DNA of 64,000 bases from Candidatus Bathyarchaeota archaeon (GCA_963770935.1 CAVYRJ010000001.1:183393-247392); one strand, 5' to 3'. Positions 1,030 through 21,798 are shown, counted from the first letter of the stretch. Notes: generated by a model not told the origin, from the letters alone. Made by a program: numbers and translations.

Positions 1030-1108
1030 TGGCGGGCCCGCTGGGATTTGAACCCAGGACCTCCGGCTCCGCAGGCCGGTGTCATAATCCGTACTAGACG
1101 ACGAGCCC
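1030..1108 (-). tRNA. tRNA-Arg(GCG), CCA encoded
   Basis: Reverse complement GGGCTCGTCGTCTAGTACGGATTATGACACCGGC-CTGCGGA-GCCGGAGGTCCTGGGTTCAAATCCCAGCGGGCCCGCCA folds as a cloverleaf; anticodon GCG. Confidence 0.95.
1088..1108 (+). repeat. att repeat (left), equals tRNA nt 1-21
   Basis: TCCGTACTAGACGACGAGCCC, identical to 19984-20004. Confidence 0.93.
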
Positions 1109-2936: not shown

Positions 2937-3221
2937 CAATTAACCGTTCCCTCCTTTTTTTATTTAAACTTACAACATATTCGATAGGCGTTGACATTTC
3001 CATTATCGCCAAATCGGGTATTTTGCTCAAGCACTTATTCACGAAAGTCCGATCAAAAGTAATCAATCGAATTTTCCTCCACACATGGGGCATTGTTTCT
3101 TTATTGTGTTTGAAGGTGTTGGAAGTTGGAAATTAATAATCCTGCTAAGTAAGAAGCGCCTAATTAGTGAATTAGAATAGGGCTTTTATAATCATTAAAT
3201 AAATTATATTGAGAACTGAAT

Positions 3222-3365
3222 TTGCCAATTTACTACACTTGCAGAAAATGCAGAAAAGACTATTCAAAAGAAGAATATTCGCATGACAAATTCTGCAAGG
3301 AATGCGGTTCATTCCTTCTGTTGTACATTCAAGAAAGAGCAGAAGCAAGCAGCAGTTCAAACTAA
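3222..3365 (+). CDS. Zn-ribbon (CRKC...CKECG), probably the frameshifted N-terminus of the downstream YprB-like gene
   Basis: TTG-initiated MPIYYTCRKCRKDYSKEEYSHDKFCKECGSFLL overlapping 3302 in another frame. Confidence 0.6.
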   Translation: MPIYYTCRKCRKDYSKEEYSHDKFCKECGSFLLLYIQERAEASSSSN

Positions 3366-4456: not shown

Positions 4457-6705
4457 TCGACGACTTCATCAAGAACATTAAGCAGATGCAGTCCTACAAG
4501 AAACAAATCGTCCATGTCCAAAAAATTGCTGCTCAAAAAGCAAGCTTTGGCGAATTGGAAAAACCGCTCCCAGAAAACATCCATAACTGCCTACTTAATC
4601 GCGAAATCTCTTTCTACTCGCATCAAGCTGAGGCAATAAACAAAGCACGGCAAGGCAAGAACGTAGTCATAGTTACACCAACTGCATCAGGGAAAACCTT
4701 AGCCTTCAACATCCCAGTCCTTGAAGCTCTAACAGAAGACCCGAAAGCAACTGCACTATACCTCTACCCCACAAAAGCGCTAACAAACGACCAGCTAAAA
4801 GTGCTAAAAGAATTGGAGAAAGAAATAGGAATCAAAGTATCCCCAAACATCTACGACGGGGACACTCCGCAAAGTCAAAGAGCAAGCATCCGCGAAAACT
4901 CAAAAATCATTCTAACCAATCCTTATGGTCTGCATCAGTATTTGCCTTGGCATTATAAATGGCGGACTTTTCTGCAAAACCTAAAATTCATAGTAATAGA
5001 TGAAGCACACGTTTACCGAGGAGTCTTCGGCTCCAACGTAGCCATGCTCCTCAGACGGCTAATGAGAATATGCAGCTATTACCATGCAGAACCCCAAATC
5101 ATACTCTCATCAGCAACTATTGCCAATCCAGAGGAACATGCCAAGAAATTAACTGGAAAAGACTTTGAAATTATCTCCAAAGACGGTGCACCGAAAGGAA
5201 AAAAGACATTCATGTTTTGGAACCCACCATTCATCGATGACAACAATACAATTCGCCGATCCACCCACCAAGAAACCAAAGACCTCTTAACTCTTAGCAT
5301 TCTGAAAAACCTTCAAACTCTATGCTTCACCACATCAAGGCAAATGGCTGAACTCATAACAAGATGGACCAAAGAAGAACTTAGAAAGAGGTCACCAAAA
5401 CTTCAAAACGCAATTACTGCATATAGGGCAGGCTATCTCCCACAAGAGAGAAGACAAATTGAAAACCGACTAAAATACAAAGAATTAATCGGAGTTGTCT
5501 CAACCAATGCTCTTGAACTTGGAATCGACATAGGCTCCTTGGATTCAGTGATAATCTCTGGCTATCCAGGAACAGTCATATCCACTTGGCAACAAGCTGG
5601 ACGTGCAGGCAGAACCGAAGCAGATTCACTGGTTACTCTTGTTGCTTTTCAAAACCCACTTGACCAATACTTCATGAAACATCCAGAAGACTTCTTCGGA
5701 CGACCGCATGAACAAGCTATAATCGATCTGCATAACCAGTACATCTCTCTTGGGCACATAATGTGCGCTGCCAGCGAACTCCCAATAACTGAAGATGACA
5801 AAAGATTCTTCCCAGAACTCTTTTCAGAAAGCATCCAAGCATTGGAAGAGCAGCATCTTGTCAGAAAAACACCCAGAGGATATGTCTACTCAGGAACCGC
5901 AAGACCCGTTGAAGTTGTCAGCCTTGAGAGCATATCCGACAAAACTGTAACTGTCCTTGCCAATGGTAGCGTACTTGAAACGTTAACGCTAAACAAGGCC
6001 TATGAAGAAGTGCATGCGGGCGCAGTTTTGCTGCATCAGGGAGAAACCTTCATTTCCGAAGAACTCAACCTCGAAGATTTAACAGCAAAGGTCAGGCAGG
6101 AAGACGTTAACTACTACACAGAAGCACTGAAAACAGTCGATGTAGCCATAAAGAAGACCTTCGAAGAAAAACAAGACAAGGTCAAGATCGGTCTGGGAGA
6201 ATTAACCATAACCGAAAACTACCACCAATATATCACAAAAACCTACGATGAAATAATCAAGCGACAACCACTCGATTTGCCCCCGTTAACGTTCACAACG
6301 GTCGGCATGTGGTTCTTGATTCCAGACAAACTCAGAGAAGAACTCGACGCCCAAAACCTCGATTTCGACGGCGGACTTCATGCGGTTGAACATGCGATGA
6401 TAGCTATGTCGCCGATATTTGCCATGTGCGACAGATGGGACATAGGCGGATTATCAACGCCCCTTCACCCAGACACCGGAGAACCAACAATCTTTATCTA
6501 TGATGGGTTTGAAGGAGGAATCGGAATATCAGAGAACCTCTACTCAAACATTAAACCACTCTGGGAAAAGACTTTGAAATTGATTGAAAATTGCGAATGC
6601 AAAGACGGATGCCCCTCATGCATTTACTCACCAAAATGCGGCAACGAAAACGAACCACTAGATAAAAAAGCTGCAACTATCATCCTAAGACACTTAACAA
6701 GCTGA
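4444..6705 (+). CDS. YprA/MrfA-like SF2 DEAH helicase with C-terminal DUF1998 (MZB) Zn domain
   Basis: PTASGKT, DEAH, SAT, LELGIDIG, QQAGRAGR and CECKDGCPSCIYSPKC motifs. Confidence 0.95.
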   Translation: MEPLIDDFIKNIKQMQSYKKQIVHVQKIAAQKASFGELEKPLPENIHNCLLNREISFYSHQAEAINKARQGKNVVIVTPTASGKTLAFNIPVLEALTEDPKATALYLYPTKALTNDQLKVLKELEKEIGIKVSPNIYDGDTPQSQRASIRENSKIILTNPYGLHQYLPWHYKWRTFLQNLKFIVIDEAHVYRGVFGSNVAMLLRRLMRICSYYHAEPQIILSSATIANPEEHAKKLTGKDFEIISKDGAPKGKKTFMFWNPPFIDDNNTIRRSTHQETKDLLTLSILKNLQTLCFTTSRQMAELITRWTKEELRKRSPKLQNAITAYRAGYLPQERRQIENRLKYKELIGVVSTNALELGIDIGSLDSVIISGYPGTVISTWQQAGRAGRTEADSLVTLVAFQNPLDQYFMKHPEDFFGRPHEQAIIDLHNQYISLGHIMCAASELPITEDDKRFFPELFSESIQALEEQHLVRKTPRGYVYSGTARPVEVVSLESISDKTVTVLANGSVLETLTLNKAYEEVHAGAVLLHQGETFISEELNLEDLTAKVRQEDVNYYTEALKTVDVAIKKTFEEKQDKVKIGLGELTITENYHQYITKTYDEIIKRQPLDLPPLTFTTVGMWFLIPDKLREELDAQNLDFDGGLHAVEHAMIAMSPIFAMCDRWDIGGLSTPLHPDTGEPTIFIYDGFEGGIGISENLYSNIKPLWEKTLKLIENCECKDGCPSCIYSPKCGNENEPLDKKAATIILRHLTS

Positions 6706-6936
6706 CTTTCATTTACGCTAAAGCAACAAAAAAGAGGGCTATCTCAACCTGAAACGATTTTTCCACTTAGCATAAGAGGTGTCAAAGAGGTTTTTCCAGG
6801 GTTTGCGTTGAGTGATTTTGCAGTTCTGCAGGGTTCGTCTGTTTTGCCTTTGGCATCGTTGTTGTGTGTGAAAGCGCAGCTTCCTCCTCAACTCGGCGGA
6901 TTGCAGAGCAGTATTATTTTTATCGATTGGGGATAA
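6706..6936 (+). pseudogene. N-terminal remnant of an inactive RadA/Rad51-like paralog
   Basis: Frame reads ...IRGVKEVFPGFALSDFAVLQGSSVLPLASLLCVKAQLPPQLGGLQSSIIFIDWG*, resembling Rad51 LCVxxQLPxxxGG..xxxID with a degenerate Walker A. Confidence 0.65.
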
Positions 6937-7086
6937 AATAAAATCTCGAATTTAAAGTCGCTTTTGGGCGAGCCTTCCAGAAGCATTATTGCTTCACTTT
7001 TAACGCTCTTCTACTGTAATTCAAAATCTCTGACTAGTTCATTAGTTCGTCTTACTTAATACAATCCCCGAAGCGGAAGAACAGAT

Positions 7087-7410
7087 ATGAGCACAGCTGA
7101 CACTGAGAAAGACTCTGGGAAAGAGGTTTGTTGTGAATATGCTACAGCTGTGACTGGTTTAGGCGAATTTGAATTATGTATTCGCGAGTGCGGCAATCAA
7201 ACTTGTCCTCAATCTATTTTTTCTAATCCGGCAATCTACGAAAGATGCCCACAGCGGTTGAAGTACAAAAAAGACGGCTTGATTTTGAATCAAAGTGAAC
7301 CGAAAAAGGTTTTTGTTCACGTTCACTCAAAACAAGAGTCTGTACCGAAATTCACCGGTATGAACTGCAACGGCTGCCAATACAAGGCTGGTTCTTATTG
7401 TTGGGGCTAA
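7087..7410 (+). CDS. Small Cys-rich hypothetical protein
   Basis: 107-aa ORF with several Cys clusters. Confidence 0.5.
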   Translation: MSTADTEKDSGKEVCCEYATAVTGLGEFELCIRECGNQTCPQSIFSNPAIYERCPQRLKYKKDGLILNQSEPKKVFVHVHSKQESVPKFTGMNCNGCQYKAGSYCWG

Positions 7411-7455
7411 TGCACAATGAACATTTGGAAAAGAAAACCTGATTGGTGAGGGTTA

Positions 7456-7670
7456 ATGAGTAAGGAAAAAAGCGTATCTTTGCAGTGGATGATGTGAATA
7501 TTTTGAGAATTTTTAGGAGTATTTTGAAAAAGAAGGATACGTAATTGATACGGTTGAGACCGGTAAAGATGCCCTTAAGAAAATCGAAAGGAGAAGTTCA
7601 ACGTGTGCTTAGTTGACGTTAGGCTCCCTGACATGGAAGGAACTGAGCTTCTCCTCGATATGGCAGAGTT
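7456..7670 (+). pseudogene. CheY-like response-regulator receiver domain remnant
   Basis: GGTGAGG RBS + ATG; pieces IFAVDD, EGYVIDTVETGKDALKKI and CLVDVRLPDMEGTELL across several frameshifts. Confidence 0.8.
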
Positions 7671-8184
7671 CTTTTACTTCGGCAATCCAACAAGTATGCG
7701 GCACAAAGCCTAAAGACGAATCAACCATAAAACTCACATGGCTATTTCTCTAATGACTTTAAGAAGCAAGGCGTTGAAACGACTAACACCCGTAATTGAG
7801 AGATAGTTAAAAGTGGAAGGCTGAGGAGCTGACGTTTCTTAGAAATACGTGTTAGCTAACAAGATGACTAATCTAAAAGAAAGCACCATAACGAACAATT
7901 TGAGTTATTGCTCAAATCCTACATGCCTCAATGGGAACAAAGCAAACAAGAACTCAACAACGGCATTCTTAGTTATTCTGAATGGGCAGAGTAGACTTAG
8001 ACTCTTGCTCCACAATGGGGACACTTATCTGCCGTCTCTTTGTAAATATTCTTGCAGTAGGCTCAGCTATTTTTAGTTAAATATTGGCAGTTATTAAATA
8101 AAGCAAAACTCAAAATTACACGTTTCGGGCACTCAATGTAAGACAAATTAAGAACCAAGTGCTATATTATTTAGGTGAATATTT

Positions 8185-8337
8185 TTGCGTAAACAACACA
8201 GACCAGAAGGATCGACAACCTCCTCTCCAAACAGGAGCAGTATAGCAAGAAAAGCAAATGCCGCCAATAGTTCGAGACAGAAGCAAGCCAACGATAATCG
8301 TTCGAGACAGACTCAAGCCGATAATTCAAAGAAGTAA
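8185..8337 (+). CDS. 50-aa polar low-complexity microprotein with an internal 10-aa repeat
   Basis: AGGTGA RBS, TTG start; NSSRQKQAND/NRSRQTQADN encoded by a 30-bp imperfect tandem repeat at 8266-8325. Confidence 0.4.
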   Translation: MRKQHRPEGSTTSSPNRSSIARKANAANSSRQKQANDNRSRQTQADNSKK

Positions 8338-8577
8338 AACAGTATTTTATACTTCTAAATTAAATTTTAATGCGTGGATTGAATATACTGTAATGAAACG
8401 GTTATGCGTTTTCGGCTTAGGCTGTCTACGGTTACTTCAATTCATTTTTTGTGATAGGAAGACTTAAAAAAGCAAGTCAACATAAAACTAAAGGAGAGAA
8501 AGTTTTTGGAAAAAACAGCGACGATTTATTCACTCTTGACTTTTTCGGCGTAGCTTTTTTGATTTTGGTGAAAACAT

Positions 8578-8754
8578 ATGAAAGATTTTAAGTGCCCAAT
8601 ATGTAGTGGGTCAACTGAAAAGATTTGGGAAAATGCAACCAGAACAAGATACGGAATGAGATGTACGAAAGGCCACAATAAAACAGGTGGCAAATCAGAG
8701 GGTTCAAAAGAGTACCCCACATTTCTTGTTCCAAGTGAAGAACTTGGTAAGTAA
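8578..8754 (+). CDS. 58-aa Zn-finger microprotein (CPIC...CxxGH)
   Basis: GGTGA RBS; MKDFKCPICSGS...MRCTKGH; below the ORF-track cutoff. Confidence 0.6.
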   Translation: MKDFKCPICSGSTEKIWENATRTRYGMRCTKGHNKTGGKSEGSKEYPTFLVPSEELGK

Positions 8755-8861
8755 AGAAACTTAGATTCTTTCTTTTTTGTTATGGGTACTAAAATTTAAT
8801 TTGAACCACACCTAAAACTTTTTGAAGGCTAAAGTTGTTTATTTGACAAGGATAAATCTTG

Positions 8862-9026
8862 ATGGATAAAGCTAAAATTAAAGATGAAATGTGCACGTGT
8901 GGGCATCTGAAAAGTGAGCATTCGTATTTTTTAGATAGAGTATGTACTAAACCTAAATGTGAATGTTACAAGTTCGTTTTGAAGGACGAAGAACAAAAGC
9001 CTAATTTTTTAGATTCTGTGTGCTAA
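8862..9026 (+). CDS. 54-aa Zn-finger microprotein (CxCGHxxxxH...CxxxxCxCxxF)
   Basis: MDKAKIKDEMCTCGHLKSEHSYFLDRVCTKPKCECYKF... Confidence 0.6.
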   Translation: MDKAKIKDEMCTCGHLKSEHSYFLDRVCTKPKCECYKFVLKDEEQKPNFLDSVC

Positions 9027-9085
9027 AGCATGAAGATAGATAAACTAATAATCGCTTTGAATGATACTGCTAAGAGGTTCAATAA

Positions 9086-9442
9086 ATGGTAAAAATCAAT
9101 CTGTTGACCTATTTGACTTTCAATTTGAACATGCTCGTTGACAAAGGAAAAGGTATGACGATAAAAGAGACCAGGCAGTTATGCGAAAAAAGAACAATAC
9201 TTCGAGAGTTGCAAGAGCGATTTCCTTTTGCAGAAACACACCTTGACTTATCATTACTGAAACTGCAGCCAGATGCTGAAGAAGAAATTGAGAATATTTT
9301 TTACGATATGGCTACTTCATTAAAAGACAGCGAAATGCTTGTGGGAAACAACGGTTTATGTCTGTTGATTGCATACGCTCAAGAACAGATTCAAAGAGAA
9401 GCAAGAAAACTTGAAGAGAAAAGAGACGACGAAAAAGTCTGA
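9086..9442 (+). CDS. Hypothetical protein (true start probably internal)
   Basis: ORF with natural composition, no recognised motif. Confidence 0.45.
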   Translation: MVKINLLTYLTFNLNMLVDKGKGMTIKETRQLCEKRTILRELQERFPFAETHLDLSLLKLQPDAEEEIENIFYDMATSLKDSEMLVGNNGLCLLIAYAQEQIQREARKLEEKRDDEKV

Positions 9443-9491
9443 TAGCCTAAATCTTTTTCTTCTATAAATCCTATCTTTGGACGATACTAAA

Positions 9492-9626
9492 ATGAACCAA
9501 AAATGCCCCCGATGCGGAACCACAACAACACAAGGCTTGATTTATGATAAGGTACACAAGAACTTACTATGCCAAAAATGCGTGAAAAAACAAAACCCAA
9601 ATTTTAAGGTGCCCCCTCGCAGGTAA
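9492..9626 (+). CDS. 44-aa CPxCG-type Zn-finger microprotein
   Basis: MNQKCPRCGTTTTQGLIYDKVHKNLLCQKCVKK... Confidence 0.6.
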   Translation: MNQKCPRCGTTTTQGLIYDKVHKNLLCQKCVKKQNPNFKVPPRR

Positions 9627-9718
9627 CGTTTGCCGGGTGTTTGTCTGGAGTCAAGAGAGAACTTATTAGCTCACTCACAGAGATAGTGGTTACAACCTCA
9701 ATTGAAAGAGGCTTGTCT

Positions 9719-9844
9719 ATGGCTAAACAAATGGGTTTGAACATGAAAGAAACAAAGAACGGCAACGGTGCTAATCTTGGTTTTGAGGCGAAACTCTGGA
9801 CAGCAGCCGATAAAATGCGCAATAATATGGATGCTCCAGAATGA
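9719..9844 (+). pseudogene. hsdM: N-terminal remnant of type I R-M methyltransferase (HsdM)
   Basis: NGANLGFEAKLWTAADKMRNNMDAPE* is a typical HsdM N-terminus, truncated just before the usual YK. Confidence 0.8.
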
Positions 9845-10290
9845 TGCCTTGAGTGCAAGCAACGTTTTGGAAAAGTAAAAGTCGGCGAAAAAGTATTCTG
9901 TCCGGATGGGACAGCTCATTTAGTCGATATTTAAGATCGTTTTATCTAATCTTAAATGGTTTCAGATTTTCATTTCATTTTTTTTACTCCCAAAACATTT
10001 GCCCTTGCCTTCTATTTGGTCTACGGTGCATTCGCTTGGTTCTTTATCGAAAATAGCGGCTTATTAGTTAAATGAACTCATTTTCTTTAAAAAACTTGGC
10101 ACTTACTTGCTTTAAGATGAATGCGAGCAGTGGCGTCGAATCTAATTGTCTAAACCGCAAAATTATGTATAATAGGTACACCTTTCTTATAGTTAGAGTG
10201 CGAGGATCGCATTATCACTTTTCTAAGCCGCTAAAGCGGGATTTAATGATTCAGTGACGATTCTGGGCAAGTAAATTTTGAGGTGGAAAA

Positions 10291-11271
10291 ATGAGTATAA
10301 CCCAAGTGAGTAGAACAAAAGAAGCCCCAAAAACGCATCATCACTTAGCTGATAAGTGCCCAGAATGCGCAAGCAATAATCTTGTTCACGATTACGACAC
10401 GGGCGAAACCATCTGCGGTGACTGCGGTCTTGTTTTGTATGAGCAGATGTTAGATAAGGGACCTGAATGGCGCGCTTTTACTCAGGAAGAGAAAGCATCA
10501 AGAAGCCGCGTTGGAGTTCCCACTTCATATTCAGTTCATGACAAAGGCTTATCTACAACCATCAGCCAAGTGGACCGCGATGCATTCGGAAGAAAACTTC
10601 CCCTGTCCACTAGATTGCAAATGTGGCGTCTTAGGAAATGGCAAATACGCAGCCGAGTCCACTCATCCAGCGACCGAAACCTTGCACAAGCAATGGCTGA
10701 ACTTGACCGTTTATCAGGCAAAGTTTCCATCTCACCACCAATCAAAGAAAAAGCCGCTGTTATTTACCGCAAAGCATTAGACAAACACTTAGTCCGAGGA
10801 AGATCAATCAACTCCATCGCTGCTGCCGCGCTGTATGCTGCTTGTCGTAAGAGCGGAGCACCAAGAACCCTTCGCGAAATCGCTAAAGCCAGTCTAGTGG
10901 ATAAGAAAGATGTTGCACGCTGCTATAGGCTGCTGCTGCAAGAGCTCGATTTTCACATGCCAACTACTGACCCGTTGACGTACATTTCAAAAATTGCAGA
11001 AGAAAATGGAGTATCTGGCAAAACACAGGGGGCTGCCATAGCTATACTTGGGGAGGCTAGACGAAAACGAGTTGTAGCGGGAAAAGATCCTATGGGCATG
11101 GCTGCAGCTGCACTCTACATAGCTTGTGTCCAGAATAACGAAAAAATAACACAAAAAGAAATCGCAGAAGCCTCTGGAGTCACTGAAGTTACGGTTAGAA
11201 ACAGATACAAGGCACTAAAGAGGCAGCTAAACCTCGAAATACCCGATCAAAGAGAGATGACAGCAAGATGA
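10291..11271 (+). CDS. tfb: Transcription initiation factor IIB paralog
   Basis: CPEC..CGDCG Zn ribbon, GPEWRAF, two cyclin repeats, GVTEVTVRNRYK; GAGGTGG RBS. Confidence 0.97.
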   Translation: MSITQVSRTKEAPKTHHHLADKCPECASNNLVHDYDTGETICGDCGLVLYEQMLDKGPEWRAFTQEEKASRSRVGVPTSYSVHDKGLSTTISQVDRDAFGRKLPLSTRLQMWRLRKWQIRSRVHSSSDRNLAQAMAELDRLSGKVSISPPIKEKAAVIYRKALDKHLVRGRSINSIAAAALYAACRKSGAPRTLREIAKASLVDKKDVARCYRLLLQELDFHMPTTDPLTYISKIAEENGVSGKTQGAAIAILGEARRKRVVAGKDPMGMAAAALYIACVQNNEKITQKEIAEASGVTEVTVRNRYKALKRQLNLEIPDQREMTAR

Positions 11272-11399
11272 GTAAGAAAGGAGAAACAGGTGAGCAGGAT
11301 CGGGGAAAGCCTCAGCCTCGAAAAAAGAAGGACAGGGAAGATGCTCGCAAGAAGAAGAAACTCGACAGAGTTGAAAGACAAAAATCAAGATTGGCTTAA
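11268..11399 (+). CDS. 43-aa highly basic microprotein coupled to tfb
   Basis: ATGA overlap with the tfb stop; MSKKGETGEQDRGKPQPRKKKDREDARKKKKLDRVERQKSRLA. Confidence 0.5.
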   Translation: MSKKGETGEQDRGKPQPRKKKDREDARKKKKLDRVERQKSRLA

Positions 11400-11539
11400 A
11401 TAAATTTAGAGTTAGACATGGAGATTTATTATTGTCTGACGCTGCTCTGTCATTTCTTCGGTTGATTGACTGTTTGTGTGTGGCTAATACTTTTCGGGGT
11501 GTGATGATTAAACTAAAAACATATGATATATTTAGAAAC

Positions 11540-12022
11540 CTATGTAGGTTCAATCCACGATATATCATGTCCACCTTGCAAGTAATTATGTCTCCAAACA
11601 ATTTCTGCAATAGTAAAACTCCAGGTACAATGTCCCTCGGCATCCAAATGATGTATTAGTTGTATAGAAGTTTCATCGATTTTTACAACAGGCATTATGT
11701 GCCAACCCTGACCATTACCCAGAGCTAACGAAATCAGGCAAGGTTTTTGCTCTTCTAAGAGAGATTTGATACGGTTCACTTTGTCTATTCCCTTGGTAAA
11801 ACTCTGTACTTTAATATTGATTTTAGGATACACACTTCTAATCTTCTCTGAAACAGAGTCAAAACCATTATCTTGCCCCAAGTCAAAATCCTCTTGAAAG
11901 GTCTCAAGATGCACTCCTTGAATCTTCAAATATCGAATTAGCCACTCATAGCCTGTTGGAATACAGCCAGATTCATGACGTTGAGGAACCACAGTTTTGG
12001 ACCAGTTTGATAATTGTGCCAT
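11540..12022 (-). CDS. Papain-like (C39-type) peptidase domain protein
   Basis: Q-x4-GC (PQRHESGC), GWHIMPVV and a downstream Asp fit a Cys-His-Asp triad. Confidence 0.6.
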   Translation of the reverse strand: MAQLSNWSKTVVPQRHESGCIPTGYEWLIRYLKIQGVHLETFQEDFDLGQDNGFDSVSEKIRSVYPKINIKVQSFTKGIDKVNRIKSLLEEQKPCLISLALGNGQGWHIMPVVKIDETSIQLIHHLDAEGHCTWSFTIAEIVWRHNYLQGGHDISWIEPT

Positions 12023-12215
12023 TTGTTATCAGAACGGTATAGGAAGTAATAGCAACTTAAGACTTTTTACTATCGTTCTGAATCAGATTTTTCCATTTGT
12101 TTTTTCCTTCTATCGTTATTTCACATGAGTCACGAGGGGTTTTCCATCCTGAGATTGAAGTTAAATTATTGAAAGTTATGAATCCGAGGTCTTGGAACGA
12201 ACTGCATGGAAACGG

Positions 12216-13250
12216 TTATTCGTTTTCTGCTGAGGCTGCCCCTAGGTCATTATTTATTCTTGTGTTGCCCTTTCCTTTGCTGGCATGTCCAAATCGTGTT
12301 ATTTTCCAGTTATTCATGTTTCCGCGTATAATCTGAGGGTTGCTGGTTAAGATGTAGAAGGGAACTTTGGTTTGGGAAGTGTAGAGTTCAGCTATGAAGT
12401 TGAGGAGTCGTTTGCCTACGCCGATTCCTTGATAATCAGGTAGCACGACTAATCGGCTGACTCGATAGTATTTTGCTTTCATTCTCACGCAGGCAACAGC
12501 TATGAATGCCACAGGTTTCTCTTGATAGACTGCAGTATAGCATCTGACTCCTGCACCGAGGGAGCCGTTTAGATAGTGATATTGCCGAAACATCTTCCAA
12601 AGGTTAGCGCCGCACCGATAGACTTTGGAGTTCAACGGGCGGCCGACTTCTTTTTTTCGGTCTAAACTCCATTGTGTCTGTGCAGAAGACCCAGTCTGGA
12701 TCCAGCCAATCCACAACATCATAGTGGCAGGTTACAGCAATGAATTTCTTGGAGACTTCTACGAACTGCTTTGCTGATGGCAAAGGCGCTGACTTTGGCA
12801 ATCTCCCTATCCACGACAGAGGTAAACTCATCGAAAACCACTAAAGGCTTATCTAAGCATAGCGCACGGGCGATGTCAACCCGCATCTTCTCTCCTTGGC
12901 TCAAACAATCATACGCTTTCAGCCAGTCCGGCGGAGAAGCGAAGCCGACACTACAGAGCATTTTTGTAATCGCATTCGTTTCAAGTTCTTGGGGAAAGTC
13001 ATCTAAGACGCATTTGCTTTTGTATTCAAAACCACGTATGTAAGCTTCTGGAAAAAGTTGTTTGGCTATGCTTGTTTTGCCTGAGCCGCTTCGCCCAACT
13101 ATTACGCCTATTTGCCAATCAAAATCCTCCAGAGGCAAAGAGCCTTTAAAACGCTTCTCCAATTTGACATCTGAAAGGGTATAGCTGCCGACCACGCTCT
13201 GTGATCTAAAACTATCAGATTCTTCCCATCGCTTTACAATGTCAAAATCC
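12216..13250 (-). pseudogene. ABC-type ATPase-GNAT acetyltransferase fusion, two frameshifts, start lost
   Basis: GRSGSGKT, LSQGEKMR, VFDEFTSVVDR; then AVTCHYDVVDWLDPDW; then SRLVVLPDYQGIGVG, in three frames. Confidence 0.85.
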
Positions 13251-13254
13251 GTAG

Positions 13255-13791
13255 CTTATATCCCCCTCCAATCTTAGCTTCTCATACTTGGCTTTCTGAT
13301 CGGCTTCGTCTCTGCACTCTACAATTATCTCGTAGGTTCCAGGAATCGAAAAAGAGATGTCACGGTCATCCACCTCGATCGGGAGCCTTCTCACCTACGG
13401 ATTCGAGGAGCGCCTTCAAATCTTCCTTTTCGCCTAGCTCAACTATGCGCAAGTATTCGGCACTGTCCAGCTCTTTGTTGTGTTTTCCTCTTAGCTTGTT
13501 TAGCACCTGCCTTAGCAATCGGCGGTCAACGTCTTTAATGGGCAAGCGGATGACGCTGCACTCGGTCATGCCAAGCTCTTTCATAGCGGTAACACGCTGC
13601 TGTCCATCTGCCACCAAAAGCTCACTGTTAGTGACGACGGGAACGATGTCTCCCCATCTTCTAATTGAAGCTTTCAATCGGTCAAGTTGCGCAAGGCTCA
13701 TTCTGTTGGGATTGTCTTGGTCAAACTTGAGGTCGCTGATTTTCACGCGTTCCGACATAGGAATCGGAATTTCTTTTTCAAGATCACTCAT
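13255..13791 (-). pseudogene. ParB/Srx N-terminal-domain protein, frameshifted near the C-terminus
   Basis: GGAGG RBS before ATG 13791; NPNRM...LKASIRRWGDIVPVV...ADGQQR; continues in another frame as YEIIVECRDEADQKAKYEKL. Confidence 0.78.
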
Positions 13792-14784
13792 TCCGCTTTT
13801 TCTCCTCCATTTTCTTGTTTTAAACCCATTAATGAGCGCCTCCCGCTCCTCCGGATGCGCTTCATAGTACTCCTTAATTTTACGTGAAATAAACTCGTCA
13901 TGGAACCCTTCAAAAATCTCAAAACTCTTCTCAGTAAATACTCCTTCAGGATAGATTGCTTTTATTTTGGCGTCTACTGCGTCCCACCAGGCATAATCAT
14001 CAAACGCGGGGTCATCCTCGTTTCGGTTATTGTTGTATTCATAATCTTCTATCAGGCAATCGTGGTTGAATTTCTGCATCTCATGGAAGAACCACAGAAC
14101 CCTGAGCATAACTCGTGGGTCTTCGCCTTTGGGGTATGCGGCAGCGAACCATTTATAGACTATTCGTTCTAAGCGGTAGCTTAAAAATTCGTGTGATTGT
14201 TCAAGAATGGCGTTTTCCTGGTCTGTTAGTTGGCTTAGAAGCTGTTTGGCTGCCTCGTTTTGCTGTTCCGGACTTGTTGCCGCTGTTTATTATGGCTTGT
14301 GCGTCGTCTTTGAAAGTTGCTCTTATTTTTTGTGCGTGGTCATGCAGGAGTTGTTCGTCTAAGTCGCCTATATGGAGCATTATGTCGTCGTCTTCTGGGG
14401 GAAAGTCTAAAATGTTGTCCTCTAATTGGTGGAGTTTACGGCTTAACACATTCATCAGAAACCCTCTCCTATCCCTTTCCGTTTTTGTTTTTTCGCCATC
14501 AGGTTGCGGTTTGGGAATCAGTATGCTGTTTTTTAGCTTCTCCTCTAAGGCTATCACTCTGAACTCTAACTCCTCGTCTTTGAGTAGGCTGCCGTAGGTT
14601 GAGACGGCTGAAACCATAACCCTTGCCCAGCCTTGTTTTGCTTTGTCGCTGTTTCCAGCGCATGAATTTTTTTGTGGGAGAGGCTTAAAACGCCGTCTAA
14701 AACGCGAAACAACGTATTTCTGCGGTCTTTAGCTGAACGGTTTGATGACGGTTTCTTATCGGTTTTAGCTTCAACTTCACCCAA
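13792..14784 (-). pseudogene. Two or more frameshifted element-specific hypothetical genes
   Basis: Overlapping minus ORFs 14566-14784, 14201-14617 and the N-part of 13366-14109, co-oriented with the ParB module. Confidence 0.45.
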
Positions 14785-14965
14785 GCTTTATTTGCCTTCC
14801 TAAGTTTGGCTCCAACACCAATGGAGAAAAGACACCGCAAAGCGAGTTAGCTCTCAAGACAACACAAAACAAGACAACGATTTCCATATTGTTAATTTGA
14901 AGATAAAAGACTTGCGTTTAAGATCCAAGAGATAATTTTATAGAGTAAGATCAGCTAAAGAGGTA

Positions 14966-15751
14966 TTGGACTGCAGTGTGGAAGATAGAACCTTATCTTT
15001 ATTATGCAACTCGTGTGGTACTTTGATTCAAAAAGATTATTGGGAGTGCCCTCATTGCAAAGCTCACTATTGCTATGGTTGCGGAAAGGACTTTCAGGTT
15101 CTCCTAAGAAATCTCATCCCCTGCTGTCCTGCATGTAACTTAGAATTATTTCACCAAACAACCGCTGAACCCTACAAAATAGCAGAATCCCCATCTTCTA
15201 TGCCACTGTTAAAAAACAAAAGTTCTACGGTATCAATTGCAGAGACCAAGGTCGAAACAGTACTGCAACTGGGTATTAGAAAAGAATCAAAAAAGCATGC
15301 CGAGGCTGAGATAGAAGTTCAGTTCTACCGTCCAATCCCTGATACTCAAAAAGTTCTTAATTACCTTAAAACGGCTAAGATAAGAAATATCAGGAATAAA
15401 CAACATCTATTTCAAACGCTATCAAATATCTTTAAAAAAGACCCAGAGCGCATAGAAGAACTGTGGTATGAACTAGAAAGAACTAATCCGATTTTAATCC
15501 GCCTAATTATCTCAAAATTTAAGGATGAAGTTCTAAAGCAGCAATATAAAAGAGCTAACTATGAGGCTCTTCATCCTAAGCATAGGAATGCCTTGAATGA
15601 TTCTGAAGTCATCTCTCCGCCGCACAGAGAAGAAGTCAACTTGGATTTAAAGAATGTAAAACCGATAGATGGCGTCGAAATTGAATGGAAACAAGGGAAG
15701 ATGTCAGCTGTCGATCAAAAGAACTACAGAAGCAAATTTGATGAACAATAA
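14966..15751 (+). CDS. Hypothetical protein with N-terminal multi-Cys Zn finger
   Basis: CNSC, CPHC, CYGC and CPAC motifs. Confidence 0.65.
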   Translation: MDCSVEDRTLSLLCNSCGTLIQKDYWECPHCKAHYCYGCGKDFQVLLRNLIPCCPACNLELFHQTTAEPYKIAESPSSMPLLKNKSSTVSIAETKVETVLQLGIRKESKKHAEAEIEVQFYRPIPDTQKVLNYLKTAKIRNIRNKQHLFQTLSNIFKKDPERIEELWYELERTNPILIRLIISKFKDEVLKQQYKRANYEALHPKHRNALNDSEVISPPHREEVNLDLKNVKPIDGVEIEWKQGKMSAVDQKNYRSKFDEQ

Positions 15752-16022
15752 AACTCTTATGTGTTTTTCGTCTGTAAGTTCTATATGCCTTTTACACTCA
15801 ATGCAGTTGATTAGTTTCAACAATATCTCTTGAATTAGATGAACCCTCAACGAAATCCATTAAGCACGAAAAGTTTAATCTATTTAGCAACAAACTGTCG
15901 CGCGATTCTTTTTCTTGGACACAATTTGGTATCAGGGCGTTCTTCTTTTGCCAATACACTATAATCTTCTCGATTGGAGCAAAAAAGGGGAAGTGAAGTG
16001 CTATGAGGTTTTTGTTAATGGA

Positions 16023-18639
16023 TTATGGTCGTTTTCGGAGCATCAGAATTATTACTATTCCGATTACTAAGATTGCGATTATCGCTGCTGCGCCCAAGCC
16101 TAAAACGTATGAGTCGGTCATTGATTCCGGTGCTGATGTTGGTGCGGGAGTGGACGAAGGAGCTTCTTCTACGTATATGGCGGTTTCCGCATTGGAAGAC
16201 CAGTAAGACTTAGAACCAGCAAAAGTAGCAATGATAGTGTATTTGCCTGGAACCTCCGGAGTAAAGGCATAGCTGTATGTGCCACTTGCGTCACTAGTAG
16301 TGTTGCCAACCTCGTAGTAATTGTTGTTCGGGTCAAGCACACTTAAAACAACCTCAACTCCTTTCACGTCAGTGGGTTTCGACTGTTGCATGTAAACATA
16401 CTCCATCCACGCACTCATATCTACGTCAGATACAGCAGGAACTCCATTTGGAAAACGTAGGTCTTGTTCAAGTTGCGTCGTGCCAGGAGAAATATCAGTT
16501 ACTCTGCCTTCAATCAGTACTTTGTTGCCATGCGTTGACACCTTGGGAGATGCTGTTACGATAGTGGCGCTTGGTCCCTTGCCGAATGAATATATCTGCG
16601 CGTCAAAGAAGTTGAGTCCTAAGATGAAGCCGTCTGCGATAACTGCGGTAGTCGATGTGAGATGCCCTCCGCCAACTCCGGCTCCGTAGAATAATGTTTT
16701 AAATATTTCCTTTCCTGTTTCCGCGTCTATGCAACGAAGGTTTTGACCGCGAAATAGAGGTTGCGTTGGTGAGTGTTCACCAGTAACTGTGTATATTTTT
16801 CCGTCTGCAACGCAGAATGCGTAGATTGGATAGTCGCCGTAAGGAGATTCATAGCCAACGCCTGTTGCGGTGTAATTCCACAAGACTTCTCCGGTCTTTA
16901 TATCGTAGGCAAACATTACTCCGGAGTAGCCAAAGGTTAAGATTTTGCCTTGGTAGACATAGTTATAGATGCCATAGTATTGAAAATCGGGTTCAGGGTT
17001 AGTTGGACCCCACAGTCTATTACCCGTTTCTAAGTCGAAGCCCCAGAGTTCCTTCGTCAGTGAATTTGTATAGTAGAAAACACCATCTTCTGGTGCTACA
17101 AATGGCCCAAAAACCGCTCCTCTATACATCGATACGTAGGTTTCTATTGGTGCTACATCAAATGGTGGCGTAAAGGTATAGTTCCAAATCAATTGTCCCT
17201 CTTGCCCTGGTTTCAGGCTTAATTTCCACATGTTGCCTAAAACAAGCGGCTGACCTTCTTTGTTTACTCCTGAAGTTCCACCGATTATATACTCGTCCTC
17301 AAGAACCGCGCGGATGCTGCCCTGTACTGCCTTTGTTATCGTCACGTTCAATGAGAATGCCGTGTCCCCGTTATGAACAGGTAGCCTTTCGGGTCTCCAT
17401 TGCCATAAATCAGTTCCTCCTGTTCCTAATAGCATAGTAGGTATTGCAGATGAGTTCCAAACTTGTAAATATTGTATCCCACCTGATGTGACTAGGTTGT
17501 ATCGCAATATGCTTCCGTCTTTACCATAGACAGCTGTACCGCCAGCAGATACGTTAGCTATTAAGGTTACCGTGTTTCCTGTGAATCCGTCAAGCATTTC
17601 CCAAGTTTGAGTACCTGACCTGACTTGTATAACCAGATGGTAAGGTGACGCCGGAGGTTCTCCATAGGTATGAGAAGCCTCCGTGCTGGTTTGGTGACTC
17701 ATAGTTGTATATCGAACCAAATGCCGGCATGGTTTTGTTGTCTAAAGATAGCGTTTCGCCTGTGTAGAGATCAACGGCATAGTAGCCCTGTATTGTTTGT
17801 GCTGTGTTACGTGCTTCGTAGTAAAGTTTTCCTTGGATAATTATAGGGGTGAAACTAAGACCTGCGTAGTGCCCTGTCATGTAGCCTGTATCATTAAAAC
17901 GAGCGTCCATGATTCCTCCGGCAAAATATGGTTTTGTCCAAATTATGTGAGCGCTTTCTGGAGCTTGACCGAAGCTGAAACGAGTAGTTTGACCAGCCAG
18001 TGGAATAGCTCCAGTCCAAGTTTGAGCGGAGCCCCCCAGCCAGTTTCCTGTAATTTGCCACCAAGCTCTGTTGGCACTGTTTATTGGGCGAGTCCAGTAT
18101 TCGGTTGGAAGAGGTGTCTCTTTCCATCCTTCTATGGGGTCAGTTTGTACAGTAATTGTTGTTGGATCGCTTGTGCTGCCAACATAAGTATCGTTGATGT
18201 ATGCAACGCCAGGTTGGGTCACTATATAGGGGTTTAGAGGAAGACCTGTTATTGTGTCATTAACCATTCTTGCCACGAAAGTGTATGTGCCGACTTGATC
18301 AGGTACGTACGTGGTGTACCCAGCGCCCACTGGATCAGATGTGATAGGTCCGAGTGTTTGTGTTGTTTCGTCAGGTTTTGTAACATCTACATAGAAGGTG
18401 AACCTGTCACCGTAAGCGCCCCCAGCTGTGGGGGGAACGGTGTTACTAAACATGACAACCAATAGCTGCTGGCCGATGCCTACAGTGTGTGGACTAACAG
18501 CAATGTAAGTCCAGGTAGGAATCACCCACGGAGGACTATGAGCTGAAACTACCGGCAAATTAAGAAGTGGAAAAGCAATAGTCATAATCAGAAACAACGT
18601 AGTCATGAAGGCAATTGTTTTTTTCTTTGAAAATTTCAT
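16023..18639 (-). pseudogene. Secreted PQQ-like beta-propeller protein with C-terminal TM anchor; single +1 frameshift near 17620
   Basis: Signal peptide in 17590-18639, remainder in 16023-17720; removing one G in AGTCAGGTCAGGT restores SQSGTQTWEML; collinear with 26895-29489. Confidence 0.9.
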
Positions 18640-18663
18640 GTTTTTCTTTTCCTATAATTATAA

Positions 18664-18737
18664 TTGACAAAAGCAAGCTTTTGAGAGGTTGCCTTGCCAA
18701 CAGAAACAGATATTTTTGCTAGATGTATATTAAATTA
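18664..18737 (-). promoter_or_regulatory. Conserved promoter block plus 5' stem-loop of beta-propeller gene
   Basis: TAATTTAATATACATCTAGC then TTGGCAAGGCAA-CCTCTCAAAAGC-TTGCTTTTGTCAA; matches 26800-26872. Confidence 0.75.
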
Positions 18738-19122
18738 ACCATTCTTGAAAAGACGCCATGGGAAAATATGTAATTTTGATATTTAAATGGTTGTCATAGT
18801 GTGGAATATCGTGTAATGCTTAGGGTTTTGAGTTTTTTCTTTCGGTTGCCGTTAAATAAAATAAAAAAATAGAAAGGCGGGAGATTTTGCCACTTTAATC
18901 TTATAGAAGCCAAATAAGACTAATATGCGAGAAGACCAGGGCCTACTTTGTTCACATAAGAAGGCGGGTGTTGCTCACCAAAATTAACAATTTTTCATAG
19001 CAGTGTTCTAAAGGTAAGACTAAACGACCTTCAAAGGTTGAGACCCGCGGTGATAAACTTCATTAACCAAACCTGTTATTGATCCTGTGATCTGTCCTAG
19101 ACAATAAATCCGACGGGTAAAT

Positions 19123-19761
19123 TCAGTTAAACCGATAGTTTTCTAAAATCTTGGCAATCACATCTTCAATTCCTTTAGGAAAAGGGACTCCGTGTACTTT
19201 TTCATCACCCAAATAAACTAGGGAATGTTTCGGATTACCAGGAATCCACTCTTCGTATTTTGCTAACCATAAACTGAGATGGAGATCAAGTTTTTCTAGA
19301 TACATTTCCAGATCATCTTTTTCTTTTTGGTTCGTTTTTAATAAATTAACGTCGATTTTTTGAGCAAGTTTTTGAATCTTCTTGTTCAAAGGGAGAAGAG
19401 CTCCTTTTGTTTGGCTGCGAATTATCAAGTGTGTTTCTTTATGTCTCGGTTTCATTTTGTCATAAAGACTTTCAAATGTTTCTTCAAACCCGACAAATTT
19501 TCGGATTTCTTCAGGAAATTGATCTTTTAAATTCTTGGCAAGTTCGTCCCTATGCTCACATTGAAGATCGAAAACACGTTTTTGAACAGTAATAAGTCTG
19601 TGCAGAGATTTCAAATTTGAAATATTATCTGCGACAATCGCCTGGTTTACTTTTCTGCGCTCAATTAACTCTCTAACAAAATAAGCGACTGTTGCAAAAA
19701 CAGCACCAATTATTGCTGCACCCAGCCAATCTGGAAATTCTGTAAACAAAGACATTTCCAT
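19123..19761 (-). CDS. Hypothetical protein with N-terminal TM helix
   Basis: 212-aa ORF, hydrophobic N-terminal segment followed by a helical domain. Confidence 0.7.
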   Translation of the reverse strand: MEMSLFTEFPDWLGAAIIGAVFATVAYFVRELIERRKVNQAIVADNISNLKSLHRLITVQKRVFDLQCEHRDELAKNLKDQFPEEIRKFVGFEETFESLYDKMKPRHKETHLIIRSQTKGALLPLNKKIQKLAQKIDVNLLKTNQKEKDDLEMYLEKLDLHLSLWLAKYEEWIPGNPKHSLVYLGDEKVHGVPFPKGIEDVIAKILENYRFN

Positions 19762-19983
19762 AATCCATCCTGTCTCGATAATGAGACGAGAACTATCTCT
19801 TAGTATTCTACTGGGAATGAGATCTATTTAGAATTATTGATCCATTCACAGCTAAATGTAATTTTATAAAACATTTCGGGTGTGGAAAGAAGTTGAATGC
19901 GATTCGTTTATTTGACTATTTAAGGAAGCCTATAAGAAAAATAAAAAGGGAGGTTGCGGGTGATGTCTCCAGAAAATGATAGG

Positions 19984-20004
19984 TCCGTACTAGACGACGA
20001 GCCC
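19984..20004 (+). repeat. att repeat (right), 5' stub of tRNA-Arg
   Basis: Identical to 1088-1108. Confidence 0.93.
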
Positions 20005-20090
20005 AACGCTTGTTTATGCCCAGAAATTTAAAGGGCAGAATAGTAAATACTTTGCTTAAACTTAAAAATAGTGGTCTTGAAAGCAACTGT
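20005..20090 (+). pseudogene. Relic 5' end of a second integrase of the same family
   Basis: In the same register through att it reads RTRRRA-QRLFMPRNLKGR-IVNTLLKLKNSGLE, versus RTRRRA-PSTGLCYKYETE-IIKTLLTMRSNGLK for the left integrase. Confidence 0.7.
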
Positions 20091-20196
20091 TATTTAGGAA
20101 AAAGTCGATTTGAACTGGGTTCTTTAGGTGTTTAGCTCTCAAACATTATCGCAGCGCAATGCTCTATCATAAATGGGTGAAGAAAAATGCGCACTG

Positions 20197-21798
20197 TTAA
20201 CTTTTACTCAATACTCTTTGCAACGCAGCGATGACGTTTTGTTTTCCCATAGCAAGTACGTATGGGCCAAGACGTGGACCCTGTGGTGCACCCATCAAAA
20301 CCTGATAGAGCACTTTGAAGAATGCGCCTGGTTTTATGTCGTTATCTTTGGCAGTGTTGAAGATGGCGTTTTGGATTTTGTCTGGTTCGTCCTCGATCTG
20401 CAGTTTGGTGACAAGTTCGGTGAGGGCTTTCTTTTCTTCGACCGTTAGTTCTACGGCGGTTTCTTTGATTTCCTCAAAGTCGCGTGTCCAGTTAAAAGCG
20501 TATTCTATTCGCTGCTTTAATCCATCGTCTAAAGTCTGGTTTTTTTGCAGGTAACCGTAGCTTTGCAGTTTCTCAGTGACATAGTCAAATAGGCATTCTT
20601 TGGGAGCCATTTTTACTAGGAACGCCATGAGGTTGTAGGGTACGTGAATGCTGGATTTGGTCGGGGGTTTCATGACATAGCAGTACAGGTATAAACCCCT
20701 GAGTTTGGCGGCTTCTTTTTCGCCGACCTGCTTTTTGCCAAAATACACATCCTCTAAAGAGTCAAGTTCGTTCATGTACGTTGGAATATCGGAGACATCC
20801 AAGGCGCGTGTGCCTACGAAACGTTTCAGCATAAGCAAAAGCAGCGATTGGGATGAACCATATTTGAACCATACTTGAGGTGTAAACACATTGCCTGCTG
20901 ACTTTGAAATTTTTTTTCCGCCCTTGTCAAGGAACATTTCGTATTTTGCATGTGATGGAGGCTCGAAACAGAGAACTTCGCGGCAAATACGGTCGTTAAT
21001 TCGTACTGAGTCAGCGATATCTTTGCCGTAAGCTTCAAACCTAATGTCAAGAGCCTTCCAGCGAGCAGCGAACTCGCTTTTCCAAGTCAGTTTACCTTCG
21101 CCGCTTTTTATATCTACCTCGCCTTCATGGCCGCAGCCGGCAATCAGTTTGCCTCGGATTTCGAGCCCTTCACATTTGTAGGAGACCTTATCGGTCTTGG
21201 GGTCATACTTGTAGGCTCTCGTCGTGTAGAGATGCCCACATTTCTCGCAAACAGCAAAATAAGGCAAAAACTCGGTGTAGGTTTCTTGGCCAACTTCTTC
21301 TTTAACGATTTCTCCGATTTTTTTGGCGTTGGTGAGTATGGTTCGAATCTCGTTTAGAAGCAGGCCTTTCTCGTAAACTTGCTTAGCAGAAAAATACGTG
21401 TATTCTATGCCGCATTTATCTAAGGCATCCAGAAGCAGTGAACTCATGTGTTTGCCGTAGCTTTCGTGGCACCCATACGGGTCAGGTATACTGGAGACAG
21501 AATACCCAAGATACTTTTCCATCTCCTTTGGGAGCCCTGCGGGAACCTTGCGCAAACCATCTTTATCGTCGCAGAAGGCAACAAGTTCAGAATTATATTT
21601 CATGTTCTTGAGTGCCAATGTAACTGCATAGCTGCGTGATGCATCGCCTAAGCTACCGATGTGGGGAAAACCTGAAGCGCCCAATCCCATTTCGGTGCGG
21701 ATTCGGCTCATGTCTCGGTTTAGAGTTTGCTCTCGTTCGATGACTTTCTTTGCCATCATGTCGTACCATGTGCCATGACCAATAGTCTCTTCACTCAT
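20197..21798 (-). CDS. lysS: Lysine--tRNA ligase, class I
   Basis: SGFPHIGS, DGLRKVP, EAYGKD and KISKSAGN motifs. Confidence 0.96.
   Translation of the reverse strand: MSEETIGHGTWYDMMAKKVIEREQTLNRDMSRIRTEMGLGASGFPHIGSLGDASRSYAVTLALKNMKYNSELVAFCDDKDGLRKVPAGLPKEMEKYLGYSVSSIPDPYGCHESYGKHMSSLLLDALDKCGIEYTYFSAKQVYEKGLLLNEIRTILTNAKKIGEIVKEEVGQETYTEFLPYFAVCEKCGHLYTTRAYKYDPKTDKVSYKCEGLEIRGKLIAGCGHEGEVDIKSGEGKLTWKSEFAARWKALDIRFEAYGKDIADSVRINDRICREVLCFEPPSHAKYEMFLDKGGKKISKSAGNVFTPQVWFKYGSSQSLLLLMLKRFVGTRALDVSDIPTYMNELDSLEDVYFGKKQVGEKEAAKLRGLYLYCYVMKPPTKSSIHVPYNLMAFLVKMAPKECLFDYVTEKLQSYGYLQKNQTLDDGLKQRIEYAFNWTRDFEEIKETAVELTVEEKKALTELVTKLQIEDEPDKIQNAIFNTAKDNDIKPGAFFKVLYQVLMGAPQGPRLGPYVLAMGKQNVIAALQRVLSKS

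Follow-up and report, generated by a model that had tools for sequence, protein, structure and literature searches.

She et al. (2001/2002) reportedly found integrase fragments beside tRNA genes in Sulfolobus and in other archaeal genomes, where partitioned or decayed pieces of the gene stay by the tRNA as traces of integration. Such fragments lie over the 3′ part of the tRNA, and no role for them in its transcription is known to have been proposed. Another described group, the pTN3/TKV4-like elements of the Thermococcales (SSV-type, ‘suicidal’), has its attB site in the 5′ part of the tRNA; in SSV-type integrases attP stands within the ORF, and integration divides the gene into int(N) and int(C). 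According to a 2021 review of archaeal tyrosine recombinases, pTN3-like integrases are unique in archaea in using the tRNA 5′ half, the tRNA rebuilt by pTN3 is expressed from the integrase promoter, and tandem integrations at one archaeal locus occur (PMC8371274); another paper describes a rebuilt tRNA-Leu separated from its original promoter, and C-terminal integrase gene remnants at synteny borders (PMC5495485).

Here we analysed a 64,000-nucleotide stretch of DNA from a Candidatus Bathyarchaeota archaeon, the whole of which we call the window, and in particular the segment that lies just outside an island integrated at a tRNA-Arg(GCG) gene. The locus is a variant of known archaeal biology, that of integrase remnants and of integration into tRNA 5′ ends; it differs in the antisense orientation of the integrase and in the proposed solution to the promoter problem, a box inside the coding sequence that is kept as a stump. 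As in the pTN3/TKV4-like elements, the target lies in the 5′ part of the tRNA (here a 21-nt repeat equal to tRNA bases 1–21), the full tRNA is rebuilt but parted from its original promoter, and integrase remnants mark old borders. Unlike in pTN3, whose integrase is co-directional with the tRNA, here the integrase is on the plus strand and the tRNA on the minus strand; a promoter could therefore only be located within the integrase coding sequence, in antisense to it. The Bathyarchaeia family would thus be a second archaeal group that uses the tRNA 5′ half, set beside pTN3 by arrangement alone.

The locus resembles the other described systems only in part. Like the Sulfolobus fragments, its decayed integrase piece stays by a tRNA as a trace of integration; unlike them, it lies upstream of the tRNA, is conserved in a clade and contains a promoter-like box. 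As in archaeal tandem integration (PMC8371274), one att site is used again and the newer element displaces the older one outward, whereas here only about 70 bases are left of the older element, and these had become the upstream region of the tRNA. The box itself is like archaeal tRNA promoters in having a purine-rich BRE followed by an A/T box, 12–54 nt out in this genome, and unlike ordinary ones in being made of integrase codons, or former codons, read on the other strand. In the open-access literature searched, we found no description of an integrase relic serving as a tRNA promoter.

Results

An 18.9-kb island in the 5′ end of tRNA-Arg(GCG)

The source assembly is archaeal (1.98 Mb, 18 contigs, 91% complete), and the named close relatives of the window integrase are all labelled Bathyarchaeota or Bathyarchaeia. 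Near the left end of the window, the first bases of an intact tRNA-Arg(GCG) form one copy of a direct repeat (TCCGTACTAGACGACGAGCCC, 21 nt), of which a second, 100% identical copy lies 18,896 nt away (Table 1). Because this 21-nt repeat is the first 21 bases of the tRNA, we conclude that an 18.9-kb element integrated into the tRNA 5′ end. A search of the genome with the tRNA found tRNA-Arg(GCG) to be single-copy in the 91% complete assembly; the same search also returned a tRNA-Arg(CCG) on contig C3, 87% identical. On the outer side of the island stands lysS, with its stop codon at 20197–20199 and about 190 bases between the island right end and the lysS 3′ end. It is a conserved chromosomal neighbour upstream of tRNA-Arg(GCG), on the same strand, at 17 of 29 lysS loci of relatives.

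Table 1. Features of the integration locus, with positions counted from the first nucleotide of the window.
Feature	Position	Strand	Basis
tRNA-Arg(GCG), intact, integration target	1030..1108	-	ARAGORN
Left att copy, 21 nt, tRNA bases 1–21	1088..1108	.	direct repeat family D2
Tyrosine integrase of the island, truncated, antisense to the tRNA	1048..1803	+	PF00589, 29.1 bits
BRE/TATA-like motif GCAACGTTTTTATT, candidate present tRNA promoter, antisense of integrase codons I-K-T-L	1146..1159	-	9.0 bits
Integrated island, 18.9 kb	1109..19983	.	bounded by att repeat; Pfam scan of ORFs
Right att copy, tRNA 5′ fragment left behind	19984..20004	.	direct repeat
Small inverted repeat, core GCCC-N11-GGGC at 20017–20037	20010..20043	.	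local fold z = -2.68, either strand
Integrase N-terminal stump, reads PRNLKGRIVNTLLKLKNSGLESN in the old integrase frame	20019..20087	+	HMM, shuffles, blastx, codon pattern
Core block identical to G016, 46/46 bases	20030..20075	.	blastn of the two loci
BRE/TATA-like motif GCAAAGTATTTACT, candidate former tRNA promoter, antisense of codons V-N-T-L	20042..20055	-	8.3 bits
Possible relic, last ~ten codons of a PAS-histidine kinase gene	20094..20128	-	weak
lysS, class I lysyl-tRNA synthetase	20197..21798	-	PF01921, E=6e-104

By Pfam, the cargo of the island includes an RNase H-like protein, a DEAD/MrfA helicase, a TFB, a GNAT protein, a fragment of an ABC-type ATPase and PQQ-like surface proteins. 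The TFB gene is complete (10291–11271, TFIIB repeats and zinc ribbon), and the RNase H-like protein and the DEAD-MrfA helicase form a pair at 3302–6705. Part of the window is contained in 21 of the 23 public runs listed, in none of them with at least half of its words and in all as assembled contigs (two RNA runs, 5–6%). A contig from a sediment metagenome (run X7) joins 18874 to 19983 via 30 other letters and represents a variant of the island right end without 18875–19982, and hence without the ORF at 19123–19761. One contig in each of runs X1 and X2 links position 1096 with 20052; its shorter side spans just 24 letters, and the intervening bases are undefined. These joins look like the island-free site of a relative, not like excision.

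The island's integrase is truncated and antisense to the tRNA

An ORF at 997–1803 on the plus strand is open antisense through the tRNA and then runs into a tyrosine integrase. The integrase corresponds to residues 1–251 of a 317-aa relative (P0002, 86% identity) and stops at ...LTYDKTKD; its R..HxxR..Y catalytic domain is incomplete, without the His/Tyr part. The remaining 66 residues, which would hold the His and the catalytic Tyr, were not found in window positions 1–22000. Because these residues are missing, we take the island integrase to be dead and self-excision by its own enzyme to be lost. The integrase family to which it belongs occupies the 5′ ends of tRNA-Arg, Pro, Gln, Leu and Gly. 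Among 18 family loci, nine have an ARAGORN tRNA call, and all nine tRNAs lie on the strand opposite to the integrase.

The annotated ORF start at 997 is mere read-through of the antisense tRNA. Many database proteins among P0002–P0121 likewise open with an antisense-tRNA translation (..DLNPGSPAPQAGIL..RRRP), and the annotated N termini of these family ORFs are artefacts of ORFs that stay open across the tRNA. Many family ORFs cross the att-encoded RRRP with a few codons before it, for example P0035 and P0063. Ahead of the right att copy, an ATG at 19966 is out of the integrase frame, and two in-frame stops precede the att. A conserved segment lies just inside the right att at 19963–19983 (GTG/ATG-TCT-CCA-GAA-AA.., with GGGAGG upstream; present also in contigs L068 and L081 and in the X7 contig). 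It resembles an integrase start from the time before integration, though it is out of the integrase frame, a relation that is the same in L068 and L081 as in the window.

An integrase N-terminal stump outside the right att copy

In the register of the integrase, the DNA that adjoins the right repeat on its outer side reads ...NLKGRIVNTLLKLKNSGLES, and positions 19983–20138 in the register of ORF 997–1803 translate to VRTRRRAQRLFMPRNLKGRIVNTLLKLKNSGLESNCYLGKSRFELGSLGV followed by a stop. Reading through the right att copy (VRTRRRAQRLFMPRNLKGRIVNTLLKLKNSGLESN...) matches the left integrase (...IRTRRRAPSTGLCYKYETEIIKTLLTMRSNGLKEG) without gaps. The preliminary description had reported this gapless alignment, with likeness ending about 80 bp out and lysS ending 100 bp later; the translation bears out the alignment, and the positions agree, with likeness to the integrase fading after ~20090, a stop at 20133–20135 and the lysS stop codon farther on. 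Directly after the att-encoded RRR(A/P), the stump carries the family's N-terminal core-binding segment, (I/V)I(N/K)TLL.(L/M)K..G(L/K). It is a relic and not a gene, without a catalytic domain.

We scored the stump against a profile of the integrase N terminus, the check that the preliminary description had called for. The family search yielded 162 proteins at E<=0.001 among 389 candidates; from the best 120 of these 162 we took the 104 integrases of at least 260 aa, none from the window, and built the profile on their N-terminal 64 positions. All stop-to-stop fragments of at least 15 aa in six frames of the genome were scanned (n=78,393). The stump scored 23.5 bits (E=1.5e-4) and ranked fifth of the 78,393 fragments, below only the island integrase, two other integrase relics and one full-length paralogue, with the next unrelated match at E=0.43. 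None of 3,000 residue shuffles (maximum 7.9 bits) and none of 3,000 dinucleotide-preserving DNA shuffles translated in three frames (maximum 8.8 bits) reached its score. Because the peptide lies so far above the shuffled controls, the refutation that had been foreseen, in which a shared promoter consensus alone makes the likeness, fails. Used as a protein query, the 43-aa stump peptide returned only two short ORFs over the same stump and no longer relative.

The genome holds further members of the family in addition to those in the window. Two relics, a 70-aa N-terminal piece (G000:C16:3358-3567, minus strand) and a frameshifted pseudogene (G000:C15:14184-14404, plus strand), do not lie by a detectable tRNA, and a full-length, 30%-identical paralogue (G000:C10:54091-55377, minus strand) stands beside tRNA-Leu(CAG).

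The best blastx match of the stump among 125 family proteins was the second integrase of locus L041, a full-length, tRNA-Arg(GCG)-specific enzyme from another Bathyarchaeia MAG (14 of 19 residues, 34.3 bits; maximum of 960 shuffled controls 25.0 bits). Over the 19 codons compared, 5 are identical, 9 have synonymous and 5 non-synonymous changes, and 12 of the 17 base differences fall at third codon positions. This third-position bias indicates that the likeness comes from coding ancestry rather than from a promoter consensus at the DNA level.

Repeated integration at one tRNA

Locus L041 carries two integrases at the same tRNA. An intact tRNA-Arg(GCG) abuts the first, and about 2.3 kb on a 35-nt tRNA 5′ fragment abuts the second; this is the architecture of the window before decay. 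The tandem spans L041 2483–5828. A lone integrase lies between two tRNA parts in L051 (2447–3450), and in P0077, P0083 and P0084 the IINTL segment occurs twice, as a stump fused before a live integrase.

Stumps were also sought in a second sample of relatives, 30 loci picked solely by likeness of the tRNA. The upstream regions of five loci scored above every shuffled control against the integrase family (L099, which is genome G016, L113, L104, L096 and L097); those of L089, L094, L095 and L098 look block-like by eye, with scores within the control range. A second upstream type at tRNA-Arg(GCG), with the TATA-like sequence AATATAAAT, occurs in L101–L103, L112 and L113. L113 reads STRLLYSRNINADVKG; 15 of its 16 residues are identical to the stretch ahead of the IINTLL motif in the second integrase of L041, and on this match it is a shorter stump of the same integrase type. 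L101–L103 and L112 resemble L113 at the DNA level, with scores not above controls.

The stump precedes intact tRNA genes in relatives

The preliminary description had proposed examining the interval between lysS and tRNA-Arg in relatives without the island. With the C-terminal 200 LysS residues as query, we searched 60 other genomes of the family and inspected the loci of 29 relatives. In eight of them the lysS–tRNA interval is 39–58 nt and holds a different BRE/TATA-like sequence; in seven, lysS lies ~0.9–1.06 kb from the tRNA, and four of these seven (L019, L027, L031 and L032) have by the tRNA the BRE/TATA-like sequence of the short-interval loci. The only same-genus genome in this LysS sample, G016, is island-free: its tRNA is followed by 35 nt and then by the block seen in the window, with lysS 120 nt from the tRNA. 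Between the window and G016 the block is identical (46/46 bases), the tRNA nearly so (77/79) and lysS DNA 79% identical (1270/1605), while the 25 nt adjoining the tRNA and the spacer towards lysS are unalignable. The block of the window has thus stayed identical to that of G016 although it is parted from its tRNA.

An exact 30-base piece of the block retrieved 34 metagenome contigs with 31 distinct local sequences, so that the perfect conservation of the block among them is partly by construction. In 26 of the 34, the block lies 30–39 nt from an intact tRNA-Arg(GCG); three end inside the tRNA, one is rearranged and one has no tRNA. The other three (L068, L075 and L081) are in the attR state, with only an att fragment and foreign DNA before the block, as in the window. 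In G016 and in these 26 contigs, the stump lies directly upstream of an intact tRNA.

To the right of the block, tblastn located lysS in 23 of the 34 contigs, as near as 38 nt and as far as 3.5 kb away, and these varying distances indicate that the DNA beyond the block was lost to different extents while the block was kept. In L060 a PAS-histidine kinase gene lies between block and lysS. The window may hold a relic of the end of such a gene: the minus-strand reading of 20094–20128, ..RTQFKSTFS and a stop, resembles the contig ends ..GTQFKITFPKE and a stop, and the only DNA support is a single exact match of 14 nt at a comparable offset. In 13 contigs, no att copy left over between block and lysS was found, even with up to four mismatches allowed. 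In the tRNA-chosen sample the block varies (L089, L097, L098 and L104) or is absent, and within the genus the block or a variant occurs in three of six genomes, with another upstream type in the other three. These comparisons of sequence support the view that the stump is older than the present island and is an old feature common to a clade, not a recent relic of the window genome.

Taken with the profile score and its shuffles, the coding-type divergence and L041, the arrangement in G016 and in 26 of 34 contigs upholds the earlier proposal that the segment is the stump of an older integrase, left by serial integration at one att site.

A promoter-like motif in integrase codons

We trained a 14-nt weight matrix on the regions upstream of the 33 other tRNAs of this genome. 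The consensus, G-A-A-A-T-G-C-T-T-T-A-A-T-A, is a BRE followed by an A/T box, and the tRNA promoter motifs of the genome lie 12–54 nt (median 32) before the mature 5′ end. Both the stump and the island integrase contain an archaeal BRE/TATA match at the usual distance: the gap from motif to tRNA 5′ end is 37 nt for 1146–1159 and was likewise 37 nt for 20042–20055 before the island entered. Their scores of 9.0 and 8.3 bits compare with a median of 9.3 bits for the 33 training upstreams and of 2.7 bits for random 70-nt windows (95th percentile 7.7, 99th 9.6), so that both exceed the 95th but not the 99th percentile of random windows.

The (I/V)-(N/K)-T-L codons on which the motif lies are the most conserved part of the integrase N terminus. 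The best matrix match falls on the IINTL codons, which are AT-rich in any case, for 16 of the 19 live integrases of the family scored, and the second Ile codon is ATA in 14 of 16, against 53% ATA elsewhere in the same genes; because the sequences are related, this pattern is a hint and not an independent test. In the closest live integrase, the second one of L041, the box at the homologous position is poor, with a score of 3.9 bits. Seen by eye, this integrase has another A/T-rich stretch at its N-I-N codons, nearer the tRNA.

The preliminary description had taken the stump for the former promoter of the tRNA. A BRE/TATA-like motif at the right distance was found, and the pattern of conservation agrees with the claim; promoter use itself we infer from these sequences. 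The footprint, in which the block is kept and both leader and spacer are free to change, would fit a promoter with a free leader. That the motif of the stump served as tRNA promoter is plausible, and we lean moderately towards it.

Other features of the flank

The 25–37 bases that adjoin the tRNA are not integrase-like and contain the inverted repeat, which separates the former tRNA position from the block that resembles an integrase. The G-R-I codons of the stump form the right arm of the repeat, which can be extended to ~11 bp. Across the 31 distinct contig sequences, 6.68 of 8 arm positions pair, compared with 4.43 +/- 0.16 in 200 shuffles; a few two-sided, compensatory changes occur (L079, L067, L068 and L086). 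Past the motif, conservation of the block continues for about 25 nt. A plain promoter explains neither this further conservation nor the inverted repeat. An Rfam scan of 19700–20400 at E<=10 gave only four chance-level matches (13.7–16.7 bits, against gathering scores of 50–65).

Discussion

The best explanation, and in our view a likely one given the sequences at hand, is that the stump of an older integrase was reused as a tRNA promoter and then displaced by a newer element of the same family. An early element would have integrated at tRNA-Arg(GCG) beside lysS, leaving the intact tRNA abutting the start of integrase coding sequence and cut from its native promoter. The element would then have been deleted save for ~70 bases adjoining the tRNA, namely the first approximately twenty codons after the att of a tyrosine integrase of the same Bathyarchaeia family as that of the island, and this stump would have been inherited clade-wide as the tRNA upstream region. 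Later, in the window lineage, a newer 18.9-kb element of the same family integrated at this att site. The integrase start of the newcomer, with a box of its own that is likewise 37 nt out, came to lie by the tRNA, and the old stump ended up 18.9 kb away, on the outer side of the right att. The (I/V)-(N/K)-T-L box lies 37 nt from the tRNA, an ordinary spacing for a tRNA promoter, and this is probably why the piece was kept. Whether the (I/V)(I)(N/K)TL codons double, antisense, as a promoter for the target tRNA, and after decay may have been exapted under purifying selection across the clade, we regard as an evenly balanced question.

The likeness to an integrase might owe something to the motif itself, since the top-scoring residues, VNTL, lie over it and masking the four residues lowers the score from 23.5 to 8.3 bits. 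Yet the masked remainder still exceeds all of 2,000 shuffles (maximum 6.3 bits), 0 of 6,000 shuffles reach the full score, and no other tRNA upstream region in the genome matches the integrase profile despite a clear shared BRE/TATA pattern; with 12 of 17 differences from the live integrase at third codon positions in addition, chance or a shared AT-rich promoter consensus is an explanation to which we give hardly any weight. Descent might also have run the other way, with the block as native host DNA that integrases picked up and the integrase N terminus as host-derived. attP sites are copies of host tRNA segments, a precedent for such capture, and the closest live integrase is specific for tRNA-Arg(GCG). 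However, IINTLLK.K..G is conserved at the protein level in members on tRNA-Pro, Gln, Leu and Gly and is recognisable even in the 30%-identical paralogue on C10, the stump and the live integrase differ mostly by synonymous changes, and many relatives have a quite different upstream region at the tRNA, among them those with a 39–58-nt interval and another BRE/TATA-like sequence. We consider this reversal very improbable.

A further reading is that a true integrase relic has some present role other than that of promoter, either as neutral DNA that has yet to decay or as a sequence kept for another reason, such as to terminate transcription from the gene upstream, to form an antisense RNA or structured leader around the inverted repeat, or to serve as a flank that aids site recognition by integrases of the family. 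Several observations would suit such a role: conservation reaches past the 14-nt motif into another AT-rich box (20059–20072), which on the tRNA strand has a T5 run, the inverted repeat between block and tRNA shows some two-sided changes, the block of the window still equals that of G016 though parted from the tRNA, and the family hits the site repeatedly, as the attR state in three of 34 contigs and in the window indicates. Neutrality is opposed by the flanks, which have diverged beyond alignment while the block has not. Also against this reading, no Rfam family matches, the 76-nt region overall is not unusually structured (z = +0.3 to +0.4), the crossover repeat lies wholly inside the tRNA, and the motif matches the tRNA promoter pattern of the genome in both sequence and distance. 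A relic without promoter function therefore seems unlikely to us, though far less so than capture of host DNA or chance. On reuse of the stump as a promoter, which we prefer, supply of the tRNA could have a second source as well: lysS or the histidine kinase gene lies upstream on the same strand, and read-through from it could also provide the tRNA.

Bathyarchaeia are an abundant uncultured group, and the locus described here is a second, unrelated-looking 5′-tRNA arrangement, with an antisense integrase and a promoter-like box in its first codons. It presents a succession at one site from native promoter to integrase, to stump and to new integrase, the stump being kept in many genomes. Discussion of how hosts tolerate the loss of a tRNA promoter through insertion into the 5′ end of the gene has, to our knowledge, been confined to the pTN3-like elements of the Thermococcales. 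If our reading is true, the element carries a hidden replacement promoter, which would explain why integration into the tRNA 5′ end is tolerated. Should the box be a promoter, an integrase-like peptide upstream of a tRNA would be a simple marker of integration history in uncultured archaea, and annotators would be warned that long ORFs antisense through tRNAs in these genomes are partly artefacts. It would then also be a clean case of mobile-element coding sequence turned into a host regulatory element.
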